Below, one piece after another: positions 1,755 to 9,329 of a stretch of 32,000 nucleotides of DNA. The notes under the pieces were generated by a model, which did no database searches, was not told where the DNA came from, and saw only the letters and a program-made list of their open reading frames with translations. Location: the NCBI RefSeq assembly GCF_001735745.1, contig NZ_CP017260.1, forward strand, positions 1,050,001 to 1,082,000. The letters run 5' to 3'. Every line of letters starts with the position of its first letter. Position 1 is the first letter of the stretch. This DNA comes from Formosa sp. Hel1_33_131 (GTDB taxonomy: Bacteria; Bacteroidota; Bacteroidia; Flavobacteriales; Flavobacteriaceae). The position numbers were made by a program, and so were the translations under genes.

Positions 1755-2837
1755 TTATTTATTCAAGATCAATTCTTGATGGTTGATCGATTCTTGGTGT
1801 ACTGCTTTAAACAGTTTGAGAATAAACTCTTCACTCAAATTGTGTTGTTCTCCTTCAAGAACCATCTTCCCTAAAATCTCATTCCAACGTTTGCTTTGTA
1901 ACACCGCCACGTTTTCTTGTTTTTTAAGAGCGCCAATACTTTCAGAAACTTTCATTCGCTTTCCTAAGGTTTCAAGCAATTGGTTGTCCATCACATCTAT
2001 TTGAGCCCGTAAATTTTTAAGCTGATCGTTGTAAGCCACTTCTGGGGTCGATTCTTTTCTGATTTTTAAATCTTTCATAATTTGAACCAATGATGCTGGC
2101 GTTACTTGTTGTGCCGCATCACTCCAGGCGTTGTCAGGATCAAAATGGGTTTCGATCATCAGACCATCAAAATTCAAGTCCAATGCCGTTTGAGATACAT
2201 CAAAAATCATATCGCGATTTCCTGTAATATGAGAAGGATCGTTGATCAATGGAAGGTCTGGAAACTTTGTTTGCAGTTCAATCGCCATTTGCCATTCTGG
2301 CGTGTTTCTGTATTTTGTTTTTTCATACGATGAAAATCCTCTATGAATCACTCCTAAATTTTTAATATCCGCTGTTGCCAAACGCTCCACGGCACCTAAC
2401 CACAAAGCTAAATCTGGATTCACTGGATTTTTAACCAGTACAATTTTGTCCGTACCCTGTAAGGCATCCGCAATTTCTTGTACAATAAATGGGCTCACTG
2501 TAGAGCGAGCGCCAATCCATAGCAAATCGATGTCGTGTTCCAAAGCCAATTCTACATGGGCTCTGTTGGCAACTTCCGTTGCTGTTTTTAAACCCGTTTC
2601 CGCCTTTACTTTTTGAAGCCATTTGAGACCCAATGCGCCCACACCTTCAAAATTTCCTGGACGGGTTCTCGGTTTCCAAATTCCTGCACGGTAATAGCTT
2701 ACATCGGTATCTTTAAGCTCATGCGCAATTCGCAATACTTGTTCTTCTGTCTCGGCACTACAAGGGCCAGCGATTACTAAAGGGTGGTCGAGATTTAACT
2801 CATTTAACCAATTTCCTAGTTCTTTTTTGTTTTCCAT
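1755..2837 (-). CDS. Bifunctional 3-deoxy-7-phosphoheptulonate (DAHP) synthase / chorismate mutase type II
   Basis: The N-terminal PLVIAGPCSAETEEQ and TIM-barrel body are typical of KDO8PS-like (class I-beta) DAHP synthases. The C-terminal ~90 aa (LRAQIDVMDNQLLETLGKRMKVSESIGALKK...) resemble the AroQ chorismate mutase fold. It is the last gene of the Phe/Tyr operon. Confidence 0.85.
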   Translation of the reverse strand: MENKKELGNWLNELNLDHPLVIAGPCSAETEEQVLRIAHELKDTDVSYYRAGIWKPRTRPGNFEGVGALGLKWLQKVKAETGLKTATEVANRAHVELALEHDIDLLWIGARSTVSPFIVQEIADALQGTDKIVLVKNPVNPDLALWLGAVERLATADIKNLGVIHRGFSSYEKTKYRNTPEWQMAIELQTKFPDLPLINDPSHITGNRDMIFDVSQTALDLNFDGLMIETHFDPDNAWSDAAQQVTPASLVQIMKDLKIRKESTPEVAYNDQLKNLRAQIDVMDNQLLETLGKRMKVSESIGALKKQENVAVLQSKRWNEILGKMVLEGEQHNLSEEFILKLFKAVHQESINHQELILNK

Positions 2838-2849
2838 TTTTTGTTATTA

Positions 2850-3701
2850 TTAAGCAATTCCTTTTAATATTTGTTTTATATGATTTGTGTTTTTCATTTC
2901 GTTGTGTACAGCTTCAAAATTGTCTTGCTCCATATAAGCTTTAAATTGATTTAAATTCTGAATGTACTCTGTAAGCGTCTCTATAACATTGGCTTTATTT
3001 TGTTCAAAAATAGGCGTCCACATATCGGGTGAACTTTTAGCCAATCGCACGGTAGATTCAAATCCACTGCCTGCCATATCAAAAATATCGCGTTCGTTTT
3101 TTTCTTTATCAATCACCGTTTTCCCCAGCATAAATGAACTGATGTGTGACAAATGCGACACATACGCAATGTGTTTATCATGGTCTTTCGCCGGCATAAA
3201 ACGCAGATGCATTCCCATATTTTTAAACAGTGTTAAAACCACTTCTCCTAAAGCTGGCAAGGTTTTTTCGACCTCACAAATGATGTTGGTCTTATTCTCA
3301 AACAAGCCTTTGATCGCTGCGGAAGGCCCTGAGAATTCAGTTCCCGCAATGGGGTGTGTTGCTAAAAATTGAGTCCGTTTTGGATGTGTGGACACCGCCT
3401 TGCAAATCGCTTCTTTGGTAGAACCCATATCAATCACGACTGCTTGGTCTGAGATTAAATTTAAAACCTCAGGCAATACTTCTAGTGCTGCATTTACGGG
3501 AATTGCCAACACCACGAGATCTGCGTCCACAAGGCTGTTTAAATCCCCTATTTGGTCAATGATCTCAAGTTCTAAAGCTTCTGATAAATGCGTTTCATTT
3601 TGATCAATTCCTGTGATGCGAACTCCTGAAATATAGTGTTTTAAATCCAACGCAAAACTGCCACCAATCAATCCAATCCCTATGATGCTTACCTGTTTCA
3701 T
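2850..3701 (-). CDS. tyrA: Prephenate dehydrogenase
   Basis: It starts MKQVSIIGIGLIGGSFALDL, a Rossmann GxGxxG motif, followed by a prephenate dehydrogenase body. The ATG at 3701 overlaps the upstream stop as ATGA. The longer tracked ORF (to 3875) is read-through into the preceding gene. Confidence 0.85.
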   Translation of the reverse strand: MKQVSIIGIGLIGGSFALDLKHYISGVRITGIDQNETHLSEALELEIIDQIGDLNSLVDADLVVLAIPVNAALEVLPEVLNLISDQAVVIDMGSTKEAICKAVSTHPKRTQFLATHPIAGTEFSGPSAAIKGLFENKTNIICEVEKTLPALGEVVLTLFKNMGMHLRFMPAKDHDKHIAYVSHLSHISSFMLGKTVIDKEKNERDIFDMAGSGFESTVRLAKSSPDMWTPIFEQNKANVIETLTEYIQNLNQFKAYMEQDNFEAVHNEMKNTNHIKQILKGIA

Positions 3702-4840
3702 AAGACGCGTTTTATGGCAGATTGAATACTCTCTTTTGGCGCACACAATGAGAACCGAACGTAGCCTTCGCCATTGCTGCCAAAAATGGTCCCTGGCGCA
3801 ATAAATACATGATGCTCTTGTAATAGAGTGTCGATAAATGTTTCTGATTTCAAACCCGATGGTAATTTGGCCCATACAAACATTCCTGAAGTTGAAGTTT
3901 CAAACGTACAGTTGAGAGCGGTGGCTAATTCCCACACAAGCTGACGACGTTCCGCATAGATTTTATTTAAATCCGTAAACCAATTTTTTGAACTGTTGAG
4001 GGCTTCAATCGCGCCTTTTTGAATCCCGTAAAACATTCCCGAATCCATATTACTTTTAACTTTAATGACATTCTGTAAATGTGCTGCTGAACCTGTTAAC
4101 ATTCCCACACGCCAGCCGGCCATATTGAACGTTTTACTTAAAGAATTTAGTTCTAAACAGACGTCTTTTGCACCTTCAATATTGAAAATACTAGAAGGAT
4201 GTTCATTTAAAATAAAACTATAAGGGTTGTCATTGATGAGTAAAATAGAATGTTTTTGAGCGAAATCAACCAATGCTTTTAATACGGTTTGATCGCCTAA
4301 AGTCCCTGTCGGCATGTGTGGATAATTGACCCACATGATTTTTACCTTGGACAAATCCATCGCTTCTAAAGCTGCTAAATCTGGTTGCCAATTGGAGCTT
4401 GCTTTTAAATCATAAAAAACAGGGTCCGCACCTACTAATTTCGTGACCGAAGTGTAGGTTGGATAGCCTGGATTTGGAATTAAAACGGCATCGCCTTCAT
4501 TGAGGTACGCCATTGAAATATGCATAATTCCTTCTTTACTCCCTATGAGAGGTAAAATTTCATTTTCAGAATTTAGACTTACGTTGTAATGGGTTTGATA
4601 AAAATCTGCCATGGCCGATCGAAGTTCTGGAAGTCCTTGATAACTTTGATATTTATGAGCTGAGGCGTCCGTCAGACTGTCTGTAATGGCAGAAATGACG
4701 GCTTTTGGTGGCGCCAAATCAGGACTTCCGATGCCTAAATTGATGATGGGAGCACCGGCAGCCTTCATGGCATTGACCTCTCTTAATTTTTTAGAAAAGT
4801 AGTATTCTTCAACGGTATGTAATCGATTGGCAGTAACCAT
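3698..4840 (-). CDS. Class I/II PLP-dependent aminotransferase (probable aromatic/prephenate aminotransferase by context)
   Basis: It carries NPGYPTY and the SLSKTFNMAGWRVG PLP-lysine motif. It sits between pheA and tyrA with 1-nt and 4-nt overlaps. Confidence 0.8.
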   Translation of the reverse strand: MVTANRLHTVEEYYFSKKLREVNAMKAAGAPIINLGIGSPDLAPPKAVISAITDSLTDASAHKYQSYQGLPELRSAMADFYQTHYNVSLNSENEILPLIGSKEGIMHISMAYLNEGDAVLIPNPGYPTYTSVTKLVGADPVFYDLKASSNWQPDLAALEAMDLSKVKIMWVNYPHMPTGTLGDQTVLKALVDFAQKHSILLINDNPYSFILNEHPSSIFNIEGAKDVCLELNSLSKTFNMAGWRVGMLTGSAAHLQNVIKVKSNMDSGMFYGIQKGAIEALNSSKNWFTDLNKIYAERRQLVWELATALNCTFETSTSGMFVWAKLPSGLKSETFIDTLLQEHHVFIAPGTIFGSNGEGYVRFSLCAPKESIQSAIKRVL

Positions 4841-5667
4841 TATTTTTTTGCGTTTTTATATTCCCCTAAAATTTTAAATTCTTCCGCCATGAGTTTCATA
4901 ATGGCTTTGCCCTTTTCATAATCGGAGAACTTCTCAAAAGTGATGTCCACAAAAAAGGCATATTTCCAAGGGGTATCAATTTTTGGTAAGGATTGTATTT
5001 TTGTTAAATTCAAATTACAATCACTCATCACATTCAGCATTGCTGCCAAGCTTCCACGTTTGTGATCCAATAGGAATTTGACAGAGGCTTTATTTGTTGT
5101 TGCTGTATTTTGTTCAATTTGGTTTCTTTCTACAATGACAAATCGAGTTTCGTTGTGCTTTATCGTTTGAATGCTTTTTGCGAGAATCTCCAACCCAAAT
5201 AGTTGAGCGGCTTGTACACTCGCAATGGCGGCAACGCCTTGAAGTTGACCCTCTGAAATTCGTTTGGCAACCTCGGCAGTATCGGTGTCTTCAATTAATT
5301 TTATATGGGGGTATTGTTTGAAAAATTCTTTACATTGTAACAACGCCATGGGATGCGAAAAAACTTCTTTGATGTCTTGAATCGATTGTCCTTTGAGTGC
5401 CATTAGATTGTGTTGTATTTCTAAAAAACACTCTCCTGTAATGTGTAAATCCTGATCGTTGATGTATGCATAATTCGGAATGATGGAGCCCGCAATGGAA
5501 TTCTCTAACGCCATGATAGCCACGTCCGAGGTTTTGGAAATTAAACTCTCCACAACTTCACTAAATGAAAGATAGGGTTGTACCTCAACGGATTCCTCAA
5601 AATATGTTTGAGAAACAATGTGATGGAACGACCCTTCAACTCCTTGTATGGCTACTTTTTTTGTCAT
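4840..5667 (-). CDS. pheA: Prephenate dehydratase
   Basis: The N-terminus is VAIQGVEGSFHH and a C-terminal ACT-like region ends the 275-aa protein. It is the first enzyme gene of the operon. Confidence 0.85.
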   Translation of the reverse strand: MTKKVAIQGVEGSFHHIVSQTYFEESVEVQPYLSFSEVVESLISKTSDVAIMALENSIAGSIIPNYAYINDQDLHITGECFLEIQHNLMALKGQSIQDIKEVFSHPMALLQCKEFFKQYPHIKLIEDTDTAEVAKRISEGQLQGVAAIASVQAAQLFGLEILAKSIQTIKHNETRFVIVERNQIEQNTATTNKASVKFLLDHKRGSLAAMLNVMSDCNLNLTKIQSLPKIDTPWKYAFFVDITFEKFSDYEKGKAIMKLMAEEFKILGEYKNAKK

Positions 5668-5696
5668 AAAAAAAAATCCCGATGTTTACATCGAGA
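5668..5696 (-). terminator. Intrinsic terminator (candidate attenuator) immediately 5' of the pheA ATG
   Basis: The minus strand reads TCTCGATG-TAAA-CATCGGGA followed by nine T and then ATG. The stem is 8 bp including one G.U pair. Confidence 0.65.
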
Positions 5697-5723
5697 CTTA
5701 TATTTAAAATTTATATTGATAAA

Positions 5724-5804
5724 TTACATACACAGTGCTTCGATTTCTTTTCTGAAAAAGAAATAATAAAAGCTATAAAAAATGTAATTTACTGTTGTCA
5801 TCAT
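5724..5804 (-). CDS. Putative Phe/Tyr-rich leader peptide MMTTVNYIFYSFYYFFFRKEIEALCM
   Basis: This is my manual translation of the minus strand; the ORF is not in the supplied track. Five Phe and four Tyr fall within 11 consecutive codons. It lies between the upstream spacer and the terminator in front of pheA. Confidence 0.5.
   Translation of the reverse strand: MMTTVNYIFYSFYYFFFRKEIEALCM
5743..5764 (-). promoter_or_regulatory. Perfect 9-bp hairpin overlapping the FFF codons of the leader ORF
   Basis: The minus strand reads ATTTCTTTT-TCAG-AAAAGAAAT. The 5' arm contains the codons TTC TTT TTC. Confidence 0.4.
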
Positions 5805-6021
5805 TTTGTAATTGGAAGCTAAAGTATATATATTTTCTACATAAAAAAACTTAATTTCTTTTTTTTGTGACTTGTTTAGAAAATTTATTGATAATTCAAT
5901 GAAAATAGGCCTGAAATCGATAAAATATATTTTTAAGACCTTTTTTTGGAGAATTGATTTTAGGTGTTTTTGGACGACTCCGCTTAGAACAACTTCAAAA
6001 TGTGCTATTTAGTGAATCTAA

Positions 6022-6768
6022 TCAATCCAAAAACAGCAAGCGACCGGTGTAATACTCCTGAACTTCAACCACGGGCGGGGTATGAATACTAATGACATCC
6101 CCTGTACTTCTGATATCGACGTTTAAAGATTGTTGAGGATTTACAATGATATCGTGGCTACTTCTTTGGAATATAGTGACGTCTTGTGCAATGAGGTCCG
6201 CGCCCTTAAACTCACAGAGTCCAGCCGCAAAAAATACAGACAGCGTTTCTGTATCTCCTGAAATTGTGAATGTTGATAAATTATTAGCAACGACTCTGAT
6301 GCTTTGTGTATCTACAGTCATATTAAAATCCCCAATACTTAGATAACTCGAATTATAATCCTCAGAAACAAGAGATAGACTTTCAAAGCTTAAGACTCCA
6401 TCTGAGGATGTCAAATACTGAGTGTTACTCCTTATTGCTTTCAGAACAGGGGTGGTTACGATCATTTTGGTAATTCCATAGTCTCTGACGTAGTTACAAC
6501 TGTTAGGATCTGTTAATTGTAGTTCATTATCTACAACGATGACTTCCATCGTACCAAGCAGATTTTCCCCTGTTTGAATTTCAACTTTATAATCTGCTCC
6601 TTGTTTAATCACCAATTCAATATCTCTATTGACAAGTATTTTTTCAAAAGGATCAACAATCAGTTCTTGAGTTACTGGCGCTCCTGAAGTTTGAATGCAC
6701 CCCCAAGCATCTTCTTTATCGCAAGAAAAAAAGACCAATAACACTAGTGTATAAAATAATCTGTTCAT
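6022..6768 (-). CDS. Lipoprotein with DUF2807 / head GIN-like beta-helical domain
   Basis: The signal peptide has a lipobox (LLVFFSC). A repetitive beta-strand pattern (FEKILVNRDIELVIKQGADYKVEIQTGENLL...VVDNELQL) is typical of DUF2807 proteins. Confidence 0.55.
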   Translation of the reverse strand: MNRLFYTLVLLVFFSCDKEDAWGCIQTSGAPVTQELIVDPFEKILVNRDIELVIKQGADYKVEIQTGENLLGTMEVIVVDNELQLTDPNSCNYVRDYGITKMIVTTPVLKAIRSNTQYLTSSDGVLSFESLSLVSEDYNSSYLSIGDFNMTVDTQSIRVVANNLSTFTISGDTETLSVFFAAGLCEFKGADLIAQDVTIFQRSSHDIIVNPQQSLNVDIRSTGDVISIHTPPVVEVQEYYTGRLLFLD

Positions 6769-6769
6769 A

Positions 6770-7861
6770 TTACAATCGTATTCCTATTCCAAATTCAAGG
6801 GTTTCTGCTTTCGCTAAATGGGATTTGACAGAAAAAGCCCCAAACCATTTTTCATTAAAATAATATTTTAAACCGATTCTATTATAGATACGTCCTTCAA
6901 ATTCATAGGGGTAATACAGGTAATATCCCGCCTGAGTGACAAGCGACCAGTTATTTATAAATAATTCATAACCCAAAAATCCACCAATGCGTTTATAGTC
7001 GGCATCCGGGTCTGATGGTTGTTCAGGAAATGCAACACTTCGGTAGTGGATTTCTTCTTGTAAAGCCTTTGAAAAGAACGCTTCTACCCCCACTTGAAAT
7101 GCACTGAAAAAATTAATACGCTTGTCCACATAGGCTGAAAGTGTATAAAATGGAAATTGTTCACTTCCTACCACATCTGTTTGACTGAGACCAGAGCGCA
7201 GGACAAAATTGTATTTGAACGCTGTGGAGACCGCTGGGTGTTCTACGGACTCTTCGTAGACGATTTCCTTTGTATCTAAATCATAATTCAAGCCAATATT
7301 TAATGAGATGGTATTTACACTTGTGTTGGGAGATTTAAAACTTCCATTGGAGGCGTGAAAGAACACCAATCCTGTTTGAAGTCCGATAGGACCTAATAGG
7401 TTTGGTTTTTTATAGTTTAACATCAGATAGGGACTGCCTAATAATTTGGATCCAAATGCAACGTTTTTTGGGTTTGAATTTTTATCATACGGGTTTGACG
7501 CAACTACAATCCCTTGCCCAACGCGCAGCATCAATCGGCGTTTGAAGAAGTAAAAATTAAAATGACCGTAAAACCCAAATGTATTTCCGAGTACCTCATT
7601 TTTTAGATCTTGATACATAAAAGAGGCTCCATAATCTGGGTAATTATAGCGTTGCTGCCACTCCTTTTTTCCATCTGTTCGGTGGTTCCATCCCAGTATA
7701 ATTCCTTCTGGATGGCCTTTAATAAGATGTAATATATTGGTATTATGAACCGGAATGTTTCCTTTGAAATAATTAACATCTACAAAGCTGCTGCTTTGAT
7801 TTTCCTGCGAAAAACCAAAGAAGACCATACATCCAAAAAAACAACCTAGAAACCGATTCAT
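6770..7861 (-). CDS. Acyloxyacyl hydrolase / lipid A deacylase (PagL-like) outer-membrane protein
   Basis: A signal peptide is followed by GHPEGIILGWNHRTDGKKEWQQRYNYPDYGASFMYQD and YGHFNFYF, which resemble the flavobacterial acyloxyacyl hydrolase family. There is a 1-nt gap to the downstream lipoprotein gene. Confidence 0.6.
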   Translation of the reverse strand: MNRFLGCFFGCMVFFGFSQENQSSSFVDVNYFKGNIPVHNTNILHLIKGHPEGIILGWNHRTDGKKEWQQRYNYPDYGASFMYQDLKNEVLGNTFGFYGHFNFYFFKRRLMLRVGQGIVVASNPYDKNSNPKNVAFGSKLLGSPYLMLNYKKPNLLGPIGLQTGLVFFHASNGSFKSPNTSVNTISLNIGLNYDLDTKEIVYEESVEHPAVSTAFKYNFVLRSGLSQTDVVGSEQFPFYTLSAYVDKRINFFSAFQVGVEAFFSKALQEEIHYRSVAFPEQPSDPDADYKRIGGFLGYELFINNWSLVTQAGYYLYYPYEFEGRIYNRIGLKYYFNEKWFGAFSVKSHLAKAETLEFGIGIRL

Positions 7862-7953
7862 TTCAAAATAATAAGACCGTAAAAGTAAAGTAAATATTTA
7901 AATACCTATTGTAGAGATGTGGAATATAACTTTTTTATTCATCCAATATTTAG

Positions 7954-7961
7954 TAAGTTTG
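7954..7961 (+). promoter_or_regulatory. Candidate Bacteroidota -7 promoter box TAAGTTTG upstream of metK
   Basis: It is an exact match to TAnnTTTG, 117 nt upstream of the metK ATG. I saw no clear -33 TTG at the expected spacing. Confidence 0.4.
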
Positions 7962-8078
7962 TGGCTTAATACCGAGGACAAATTTGATCTGATTGCAACC
8001 TCATTAAAAAAAGCTAAAGCAGTACGTACTACTCCATTAGCCCGCAATCCTATTTTTTGTTCTCATAAAACACTGTTT

Positions 8079-9329
8079 ATGAGTTATTTATTTACATCCG
8101 AAAGCGTTTCAGAAGGCCACCCAGACAAGGTTGCCGACCAAATTAGTGATGCTTTAATCGATCATTTTTTAGCGTTTGACCCAGACTCAAAAGTAGCTTG
8201 TGAAACTTTGGTGACCACTGGTCAAGTATTTTTAGCTGGAGAAGTTAAATCTAACACCTATCTGGATGTGCAAAAAATTGCACGCGATACCATCAACAAA
8301 ATTGGTTATACCAAAGGAGAATATATGTTTGATGGCAACTCTTGTGGAGTGCTTTCAGCAATTCATGAGCAATCCGAAGACATCAACAGAGGGGTGGACA
8401 GAGGCGCTGAAGAACAGGGTGCTGGCGATCAAGGAATGATGTTTGGATATGCCACAAATGAAACCGAAAACTATATGCCGTTGGCATTGGATTTATCGCA
8501 CCGTATCTTAATTGAACTCGCAGCCATGCGCCGCGAAGGCACCGATATCACTTATATAAGACCCGATTCTAAAAGTCAGGTGACCATTGAATATGATGAT
8601 GATAATACACCAAATAGAATTGATGCGATTGTGATTTCTACCCAACACGATGATTTTGACGAAGAGACGGCTATGTTGGCAAAAATTCGAGAGGATTTAA
8701 AAACAAAATTAATCCCTAGAGTGGTTGCAAAACTGCCTTCGCATATTCAAGATTTATTTAATGACCAGATTACGTATCACATCAACCCAACAGGTAAGTT
8801 TGTGATTGGAGGGCCTCATGGCGATACAGGTCTTACGGGTCGAAAAATTATCGTTGATACTTATGGCGGTAAAGGCGCGCATGGTGGCGGTGCATTCTCT
8901 GGAAAAGACCCAAGTAAGGTGGACCGTAGTGCGGCTTATGCCACGCGTCACATTGCTAAAAATATGGTAGCAGCAGGACTTTGTTCGGAAGTCTTGGTGC
9001 AAGTGAGTTATGCCATTGGCGTTGCAGAACCTATGGGTGTTTTTGTGGATACTTATGGCACCAGCCCTTTTAATTTAACGGATGGTGAAATTGCAGATCA
9101 CATCTCAAAACTATTTGATTTACGTCCGGCAGCGATCGAAAAACGTTTAAAACTCCGCAGGCCCATTTATAGCGAAACAGCGGCTTATGGTCACATGGGT
9201 CGTGAACACAAGACAGTGACTAAAACCTTTCATCAACCGAATGGCGAAAGTTTGACTTTGGAGGTTGAATTGTTTACGTGGGAAAAACTAGATTATGTCG
9301 ATGTGATTAAAGAGGCTTTTGGAATTTAA
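8079..9329 (+). CDS. metK: S-adenosylmethionine synthetase
   Basis: [24 protein letters not shown] is the canonical MetK N-terminus, and [19 protein letters not shown] is also present. The tracked ORF start at 7917 adds a non-homologous 54-aa extension. Confidence 0.95.

Follow-up and report, generated by a model that had tools for sequence, protein, structure and literature searches.

A probable ribosome-mediated leader-peptide attenuator upstream of pheA in Formosa sp. Hel1_33_131 and its conservation across Flavobacteriaceae

Directly upstream of pheA, a 32,000-nucleotide (nt) stretch of the Formosa sp. Hel1_33_131 genome (contig NZ_CP017260.1, positions 1,050,001 to 1,082,000; hereafter the window) carries an element that is very probably a ribosome-mediated leader-peptide transcription attenuator of the operon pheA-aminotransferase-tyrA-3-deoxy-D-arabino-heptulosonate 7-phosphate (DAHP) synthase/chorismate mutase. 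This reading, first put forward in an original prediction made from the sequence alone, is strongly supported by conservation, by covariation and by a transcriptome study of Flavobacterium psychrophilum. The element is not new in kind, since one of the same type has already been reported upstream of F. psychrophilum pheA. The leader region comprises the following features, given in window coordinates:

5819..5826, minus strand: promoter-like -7 box TACTTTAG, of the Bacteroidetes type TAnnTTTG with one mismatch
5724..5804, minus strand: leader open reading frame (ORF) MMTTVNYIFYSFYYFFFRKEIEALCM with its stop codon (TAA, 5726-5724), as read from the strand
5754..5786, minus strand: codons 7-17, forming the regulatory run Y I F Y S F Y Y F F F with 5 Phe and 4 Tyr
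5719..5792, minus strand: segment 1:2 long hairpin, on which the minimum free energy (MFE) and centroid structures agree
5737..5744, minus strand: segment 2, the antiterminator 5′ strand AUCGAAGC, pairing with GUCUCGAU at 5697-5690
5708..5725, minus strand: candidate spacer hairpin AAUUUAU-CAAU-AUAAAUU, enclosed by the antiterminator and taking in the last two stop-codon bases
5668..5699, minus strand: intrinsic terminator, with segment 3 at 5699-5689, loop UAAA, segment 4 at 5684-5674 and nine uridines (U9) at 5676-5668 adjoining the pheA AUG

The minus strand from 5804 to 5724 (ATG ATG ACA ... TGT ATG TAA) encodes the listed peptide, and nine of 11 consecutive codons specify Phe or Tyr, so that the short 5′ leader ORF is rich in codons for the products of the operon. 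A stretch of at least nine F/Y codons among 11 stop-free codons occurs at this single site when all six frames of the 32-kb window are read, and among 20,000 spacers simulated with a first-order Markov model of equal composition, 9/11 F/Y arose in 0.09% of trials. Between the leader ORF and pheA, a gap of 27 nt separates the stop codon from the terminator stem, whose core consists of an 8-bp stem (TCTCGATG/CATCGGGA), a TAAA loop and nine T's running up to the pheA ATG at 5667; the complete stem is 11 bp long and is followed by U9 (5699-5668). A scan of positions 5300-6300 returned this one terminator-like site. The ORF with its five Phe and four Tyr codons, the terminator parts, the gap and a perfect 9-bp hairpin within the ORF had all been described in the original prediction and were recovered at the same positions. 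That hairpin had been taken as the 1:2 structure, and here the description has to be widened: the 9-bp stem (5764-5756 with 5751-5743) stands, but it is one part of a long hairpin spanning the whole ORF, together with an outer stem (5792-5782 with 5729-5719) and a middle stem GCUUU:GAAGC (5773-5769 with 5741-5737). The predicted 146-nt leader RNA has a folding energy of -29.4 kcal/mol (z = -3.98 versus dinucleotide shuffles).

To place the element in a comparative context, one genome per species was scanned for relatives of the window PheA, yielding 80 Flavobacteriaceae loci with 68-97% PheA identity from Formosa-like metagenome-assembled genomes, Psychroserpens, Winogradskyella, Olleya, Seonamhaeicola, Flavivirga, Tamlana, Gaetbulibacter, Algibacter, Mariniflexile, Dokdonia and others; the leaders of these pheA loci form alignment A1, to which all column numbers refer. 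The element (leader ORF, aromatic run and terminator) is present at 80/80 loci, complete in 79 and stopping at the contig end in L020, so that the F/Y-rich ORF for which the original prediction proposed to look upstream of Flavobacteriaceae pheA orthologues is indeed conserved. A typical leader reads M-x(3-6)-Y-T-Y-Y-N-W-F-Y-F-F-F-S-K-R-N-E-T-L-Y-V; it is 25-27 amino acids (aa) long in 57/80 cases (range 16-27), with a Phe/Tyr/Trp content of 28-50%, and the distance from its stop codon to the terminator is 23-28 nt in 72/80 leaders, the terminator in turn lying 0-105 nt from pheA. A leader start codon is found in all 80 (76 ATG, 4 GTG). In A1 the second ATG of the window (5801) is the only one kept in relatives, suggesting that the window peptide is probably 25 aa long and that the first ATG, originally taken as the start of this otherwise correctly delimited ORF, is probably not the initiation codon.

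In the aromatic codons of A1, minor alleles account for a fraction of 0.022 at position 1, compared to 0.172 at position 2 and 0.160 at position 3. Changes at position 2 exchange Phe (TTY), Tyr (TAY) or Trp (TGG) for one another; those at position 3 are synonymous (TAT 71 / TAC 9; TTT 71 / TTC 8). Gap runs measure 3 or 6 nt in 62/63 cases within the ORF, and mostly 1 nt in the spacer. The aromatic block thus bears a coding signature, supporting translation of the leader ORF, with the counts to be read as coming from related sequences and not as independent events. One Trp codon is present in 50/80 leaders, suggesting that Phe, Tyr and Trp are all sensed by the family. Its site (A1 columns 102-104, window 5771-5769) is occupied by TTT (Phe) in the window clade, where Phe has replaced Trp, as well as in several other genera, and by TTG (Leu) in L058 and L060; the distribution suggests that Trp input was lost repeatedly, possibly via a Leu codon.

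A covariance model (CM), R1, was built from L016-L080 only, excluding the window and its 15 closest relatives. It recovered the full-length element in the window at 5668-5810 on the minus strand with 108.5 bits (E = 2e-17; next match 22.6 bits) and gave exactly one match per held-out locus, directly 5′ of pheA. The window element is therefore a member of a Flavobacteriaceae pheA leader family. The other CM matches in the window (at most 22.6 bits), located within a long ORF or where genes end, were judged to be ordinary terminators or noise.

The predicted structure is conserved as well. The terminated-state fold, taken with its short middle stem, is 92.6% paired over the 80 sequences, compared to 39-55% when the partners are slid by 1-3 columns, and the terminator helix itself is 98.3% paired. 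Double changes that keep pairing affect 10 pairs and 59 cells of this fold, a result reached by 0/500 shuffles; compensatory changes in the stems, the second comparative check suggested with the original prediction, are therefore present as 10 covarying pairs. The 1:2 helices are 83-97% paired in the family and vary in a compensatory manner (columns 86:146 UA 38 / UG 20 / CG 16; columns 88:144 CG 56 / UA 13), and the outer stem, which pairs the Y-T-Y codons with Y-V-stop, covaries. RNAalifold, applied to A1, independently recovers the terminator and the 1:2 hairpin, with UUUC/UUUU of the Tyr/Phe codons paired with GAGA/ARRA of the purine-rich segment 2. RNAalifold and outer-stem covariation thus agree on a 1:2 pairing in which segment 2 is sequestered and the regulatory codons take part.

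For the antiterminator, the complementarity of ATCGA (5744-5740) and TCGAT (5694-5690) pointed out earlier holds, whereas its description as only 5 bp does not: the window helix consists of 5 bp, an A.C mismatch and 2 bp (AUCGA+GC), and relatives have 6-8 bp. The family antiterminator is CGAGAC:GUCUCG, extended to 8 bp in AUCGAGRC genera, with CGAGAC formed by the N-E-T codons; a G to A change in segment 2 of the window and L001 accounts for the interrupted helix. In most genera CGAGAC is identical to the terminator 3′ arm, and its partner GUCUCG in the 5′ arm is invariant. The predicted antiterminator and the terminator are mutually exclusive, though the antiterminator helix is weak in the window. 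Across the 80 sequences its core is 89.2% paired, compared to 24-38% in slid controls. The spacer hairpin appears in all antiterminated folds and is 83% paired in the family (A1 columns 150-154 with 160-164) with zero covariation; being conserved yet without covariation, it is not claimed here as a structural element.

A candidate promoter was located through the alignment. The block TTTG...TAC/ATTTAGC upstream of the leader is nearly invariant in A1, and TAnnTT[A/T]G occurs in 77/80 leaders 8-24 nt 5′ of the start codon (45 nt upstream were searched). A sigma-70 promoter scan gave matches at shuffle expectation; the -7 box of the window came from the alignment instead. In F. psychrophilum the mapped transcription start site (TSS) lies 6 nt past the G of the TATGTTTG box (PMC9723704). 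By analogy, the window TSS would be at about 5813, leaving a 5′ untranslated region (UTR) of 9-12 nt.

The closest described counterpart is the leader-peptide attenuator called 5′ of pheA in F. psychrophilum by Guerin et al. (2021, ISME Commun; PMC9723704, Table S7 / SI D9), for which a TSS was mapped upstream of the leader ORF, a 171-nt 5′ segment was found to be separately expressed, and read-through and operon induction were observed in minimal medium. The same study reported new structured 5′ elements, that of pheA among others, which lack an Rfam entry and recur in further genera of the Flavobacteriaceae (PMC9723704); the published description of the pheA element is one supplementary-table line, without a structural model or comparative analysis. 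The window element shares with it the position 5′ of pheA-aminotransferase, an aromatic ORF of 25-27 aa (27 aa, MNTNNTFYSNNSFYFYWNIGRDCYMVI, in F. psychrophilum, with an F/Y/W run as in the window family), a terminator, the 1:2, 2:3 and 3:4 logic, and sequence similarity, the F. psychrophilum element being collinear with the family hidden Markov model (nhmmer positions 9-133 of 134, E = 1.8e-5). It differs in its longer run of consecutive Phe codons, its shorter 5′ UTR (20 nt in F. psychrophilum) and its lack of a Trp codon. The stems diverge as a set, GGGAUU / AAUCCC / GGGAUU in F. psychrophilum versus CGAGAC / GUCUCG / CGRGAC in the window family, so that all three segments are swapped. Read from sequence comparison, the alternative 2:3 and 3:4 pairings find their best available support in this three-way compensatory swap.

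Among classical systems, the E. coli/gamma-proteobacterial pheL-pheA leader (Rfam Phe_leader RF01859) belongs to the same mechanism class and likewise has a short ORF with a Phe run, alternative hairpins and a terminator before pheA. In contrast to pheL, which has about 15 codons and is Phe-only, the window leader family has Tyr in equal abundance and often Trp, the window operon includes tyrA and DAHP synthase/chorismate mutase besides pheA, the whole ORF forms one long hairpin, and translation starts without Shine-Dalgarno pairing. Phe_leader was absent from the matches with E up to 10 in a cmscan of 5400-6200, and it was likewise absent at the gathering threshold. The window element would work like enterobacterial pheL but lies outside Rfam Phe_leader. 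That one leader senses several amino acids made by its operon is familiar from the enterobacterial thr (Thr+Ile) and ilvGMEDA (Leu/Val/Ile) leaders, which differ from that of the window in the amino acids sensed, in their unrelated sequences and in phylum. Vitreschak et al. are said to have predicted attenuators in Bacteroidetes/Chlorobi in 2004. Within Bacteroidetes, Gurvich et al. (2011, PMC3082878) remarked on the possible use of a pheL gene by Bacteroides, and the Bacteroid-trp leader (Rfam RF01692; Weinberg et al. 2010, PMC2864571) is of the leader-peptide type and serves an aromatic operon; it differs from the window pheA leader in its location 5′ of the trp operon and its Trp codons. 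Bacteroid-trp RF01692 gave no match in the window, and neither T-box nor any other cis-regulatory family of Rfam 15 reached threshold at the leader.

The mechanism proposed is as follows. Transcription would begin from the Bacteroidetes-type promoter at about 5813, and a ribosome would translate the 25-26 codon leader while RNA polymerase moves on. With ample charged tRNA-Phe and tRNA-Tyr, the ribosome would advance as far as the final Phe codons or the stop, thereby covering segment 2 (AUCGAAGC, 5744-5737); with no ribosome loaded, segment 2 would be held in the long 1:2 hairpin. In either situation segment 3 (5699-5689) and segment 4 (5684-5674) would pair, and transcription would stop at U9, just short of the pheA AUG. 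Under a shortage of Phe or Tyr, the ribosome would stall within Y-I-F-Y-S-F-Y-Y-F-F-F, melting the 5′ arm of 1:2 and freeing segment 2 to pair with segment 3 ahead of segment 4 synthesis, so that the polymerase could enter pheA. The Trp codon of most related genera would add Trp to the amino acids sensed. The sequences themselves show the parts of the element, their conservation, the coding signature, the covariation of the 1:2 hairpin and, in silico, the alternative pairings; termination at the U-tract, stalling and the amino-acid response are inferred, with indirect support from the transcriptome data on the F. psychrophilum homologue.

Switching of this kind was reproduced in silico by folding the transcript before segment 4 with 30 nt masked (-15/+14 nt around the ribosomal A site). 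With the ribosome on most aromatic codons, segment 2 pairs with segment 3 (window index 69-77); with it placed on the stop codon or the final Phe codon, segment 2 is at least partly masked and segment 3 is wholly or partly free of it. This behaviour is common to the window, L003, L041, L016, the early-stop leader L033 and F. psychrophilum. In the ribosome-free truncated transcript, segment 2 is locked in the long hairpin (window, L041).

Several observations weigh against an attenuator. The ribosome-free truncated MFE is already 2:3 in 3/5 leaders (L003, L016 and F. psychrophilum), where ribosome-free termination therefore assumes that 1:2 forms first, and the ribosome footprint of -15/+14 nt is itself an assumption. 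The terminator is always kept in the full-length MFE, so the switch would have to be kinetic and co-transcriptional, as in the classical model. In the window the antiterminated fold reaches about -9.6 kcal/mol versus -9.6 to -12.4 kcal/mol for the terminator hairpin alone; the close relative L003, with the full 8-bp antiterminator, reaches -14.9 kcal/mol, and on these modelled energies the window copy may read through less readily. Segment 3 never varies among the 80 sequences, as expected for a strand with two partners, and the 2:3 helix consequently has zero covariation, and the three-way stem swap is backed by F. psychrophilum as the only outgroup. A PheA homologue search for distant Bacteroidota did not widen the sampling, all 120 proteins listed being at least 84% identical, and a metagenome scan with the F. 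psychrophilum core pattern TTYTATTTCTAYTGGAAY gave at least 120 matches, none of those listed lying near a prephenate dehydratase gene by tblastn; the pattern is too unspecific and therefore added no outgroups for 2:3 covariation. The sequences are also AT-rich and related, which inflates the pairing and shuffle statistics, and the TSS, termination and stalling in Formosa sp. Hel1_33_131 are inferred.

A further proposal, possible though rather unlikely, would add to attenuation without replacing it: the same hairpin may also gate pheA translation, because a terminator refolded on read-through RNA would hinder the 30S subunit, while in the antiterminated fold the AUG would stay unpaired together with segment 4 and the U-tract. 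Initiation in Bacteroidetes relies on unstructured A/U-rich leaders and not on Shine-Dalgarno pairing. The terminator stem and U-tract fill -1 to -32 of the window pheA start, the T-run ends 0-6 nt from the pheA start in 54/80 leaders, and the terminator re-forms in every full-length MFE. In 21/80, however, the terminator lies 38-105 nt from pheA, and close abutment is thus not required. A two-level switch for Shine-Dalgarno-less Bacteroidota, acting on transcript completion and on access to the pheA initiation region, with Phe/Tyr/(Trp) input rewired in some lineages, is accordingly offered as a tentative extension of the attenuation model, with the odds against it.

Control by a trans-acting factor (a TRAP- or PyrR-type protein, or uncharged tRNA as in the T-box), with the ORF incidental, is very improbable. 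The best Rfam match at the leader is a weak PyrR site (26.9 bits versus a gathering score of 54, E = 0.19), attributable to the arrangement as three hairpins plus terminator, which is generic; this and the sub-threshold STnc430 and snoRNA matches were rejected as merely hairpins plus a U-tract. No Rfam family, T-box included, reaches threshold, and the 3-nt periodicity, the F/Y/W-preserving changes, the in-frame indels and the universal start codon would be unexpected in an RNA that binds a protein or a tRNA; moreover, the codon identity fits the pathway products.

Equally hard to sustain is the view that a small hydrophobic peptide with a function of its own is made from the ORF and that the hairpin is just the terminator of this ORF or, in the window, of the upstream gene, with no bearing on pheA. 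The peptide is conserved and hydrophobic, and the same-strand upstream gene in the window (6022-6768) has no terminator-like site of its own in the spacer, which was scanned in full. However, the C-terminal third is dispensable as peptide. Five early-stop variants (L031, L033, L043, L059 and L072; A1 columns 123-125) have TAA right after FFFS, giving leaders of 16-18 aa, and keep the downstream nucleotides AACGAGRCGTT...TATGTATAA unchanged; in L021 (L021:2355-2488) a 4-nt deletion after FF puts the tail out of frame (FFSRETRPCMC), with RNA segments 2-4 retained. These loci argue that conservation of the tail (KRNETLYV) acts at the RNA level and not on the peptide. In addition, the gene 5′ of the leader is on the opposite strand in 57/77 loci, and the element is still always directly 5′ of pheA; since the upstream neighbour varies, it is to pheA that the element must be assigned. 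A constitutive terminator at the start of an essential operon, without an intervening promoter, would also silence that operon. Finally, the notion that the F/Y run is a chance product of a T-rich spacer (76% A+T, 37% T in the window) beside an ordinary terminator, a caveat attached to the original prediction, has a negligible probability and is refuted by the comparative data, given its rarity in simulated spacers, its uniqueness in the window, the coding signature at 80/80 loci and the CM score. The second-ranking F/Y-rich stretch of the window, FFFFKMYFNFF (8/11) at 507-475 on the minus strand, is an antisense frame within ORF 28-573 with stops on either side and was judged to be chance.

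If ribosome-mediated attenuation operates as proposed, the textbook enterobacterial leader-peptide mechanism would also control aromatic amino-acid synthesis across marine Flavobacteriaceae, a major group of polysaccharide degraders in the ocean whose translation initiation does not use Shine-Dalgarno pairing. The understanding of attenuation itself is unchanged, and conceptual novelty is low. The 80-species alignment, three-state structure and covariance model are nonetheless enough to propose an Rfam family, none existing yet, and annotators could label the small ORF and the terminator. The natural variants (early stops, Trp to Phe changes, swapped Flavobacterium stems) constitute ready-made mutants for tests of the model.

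The four genes downstream of the leader were identified as follows, in keeping with the gene assignments of the original prediction:

4840..5667, minus strand: pheA, prephenate dehydratase, first operon gene (NCBIfam NF008865, E = 1e-57)
3698..4840, minus strand: aminotransferase, counterpart of F. psychrophilum aspC3, 3′ of pheA in 80/80 loci
2850..3704, minus strand: tyrA, prephenate dehydrogenase (NF006307, E = 3e-114), the match beginning at residue 61 of the mechanical ORF
1755..2837, minus strand: bifunctional DAHP synthase/chorismate mutase (NF009239, TIGR01361, chorismate mutase domain)

The mechanical tyrA ORF (2850-3875, minus strand) is about 57 codons overlong. Because of the family match and the motif MKQVSIIGIGLIGG, the tyrA start is likely at 3704 (MKQVSIIG), 7 nt inside the 3′ end of the aminotransferase gene. 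For pheA itself, there are 23 loci, most of them with extra post-terminator sequence, in which tblastn places PheA residue 1 on TTG or, in L068, on GTG; TTG placements are found in L022, L041, L045, L049-L054, L057-L059, L062, L063, L066, L070, L073, L074, L076, L078 and L080.

Several of the 21 leaders with a long gap between the T-run and pheA contain one or two extra hairpins without a T-run, GTTCAAC...GTTGAAC followed by CCTCAAT-GAAG-ATTGAGG. The second of these has compensatory variants, TCCCAAT/ATTGGGA in L068 and ATCCCGAAC...TTCGGGAT in L024 and L042. The extra sequence lies at 2439-2500 in L041, L050, L058 and L076, at L068:2432-2494, at L024:2430-2500 and at L042:2396-2500, and its hairpins could be a second regulatory or stabilising element.

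Upstream of the leader, the window genes at 6022-6768 and 6770-7861 (both minus strand) are without an NCBIfam match. The gene of the 248-aa upstream protein is conserved near pheA in 47/80 loci, at variable distance. Farther along, a SAM-II riboswitch (RF01726) was identified at 7968-8027 on the plus strand (58.3 bits versus a gathering score of 44), within the 5′ end of the mechanical ORF 7917-9329, suggesting that the true start of that gene is probably downstream of 8027.

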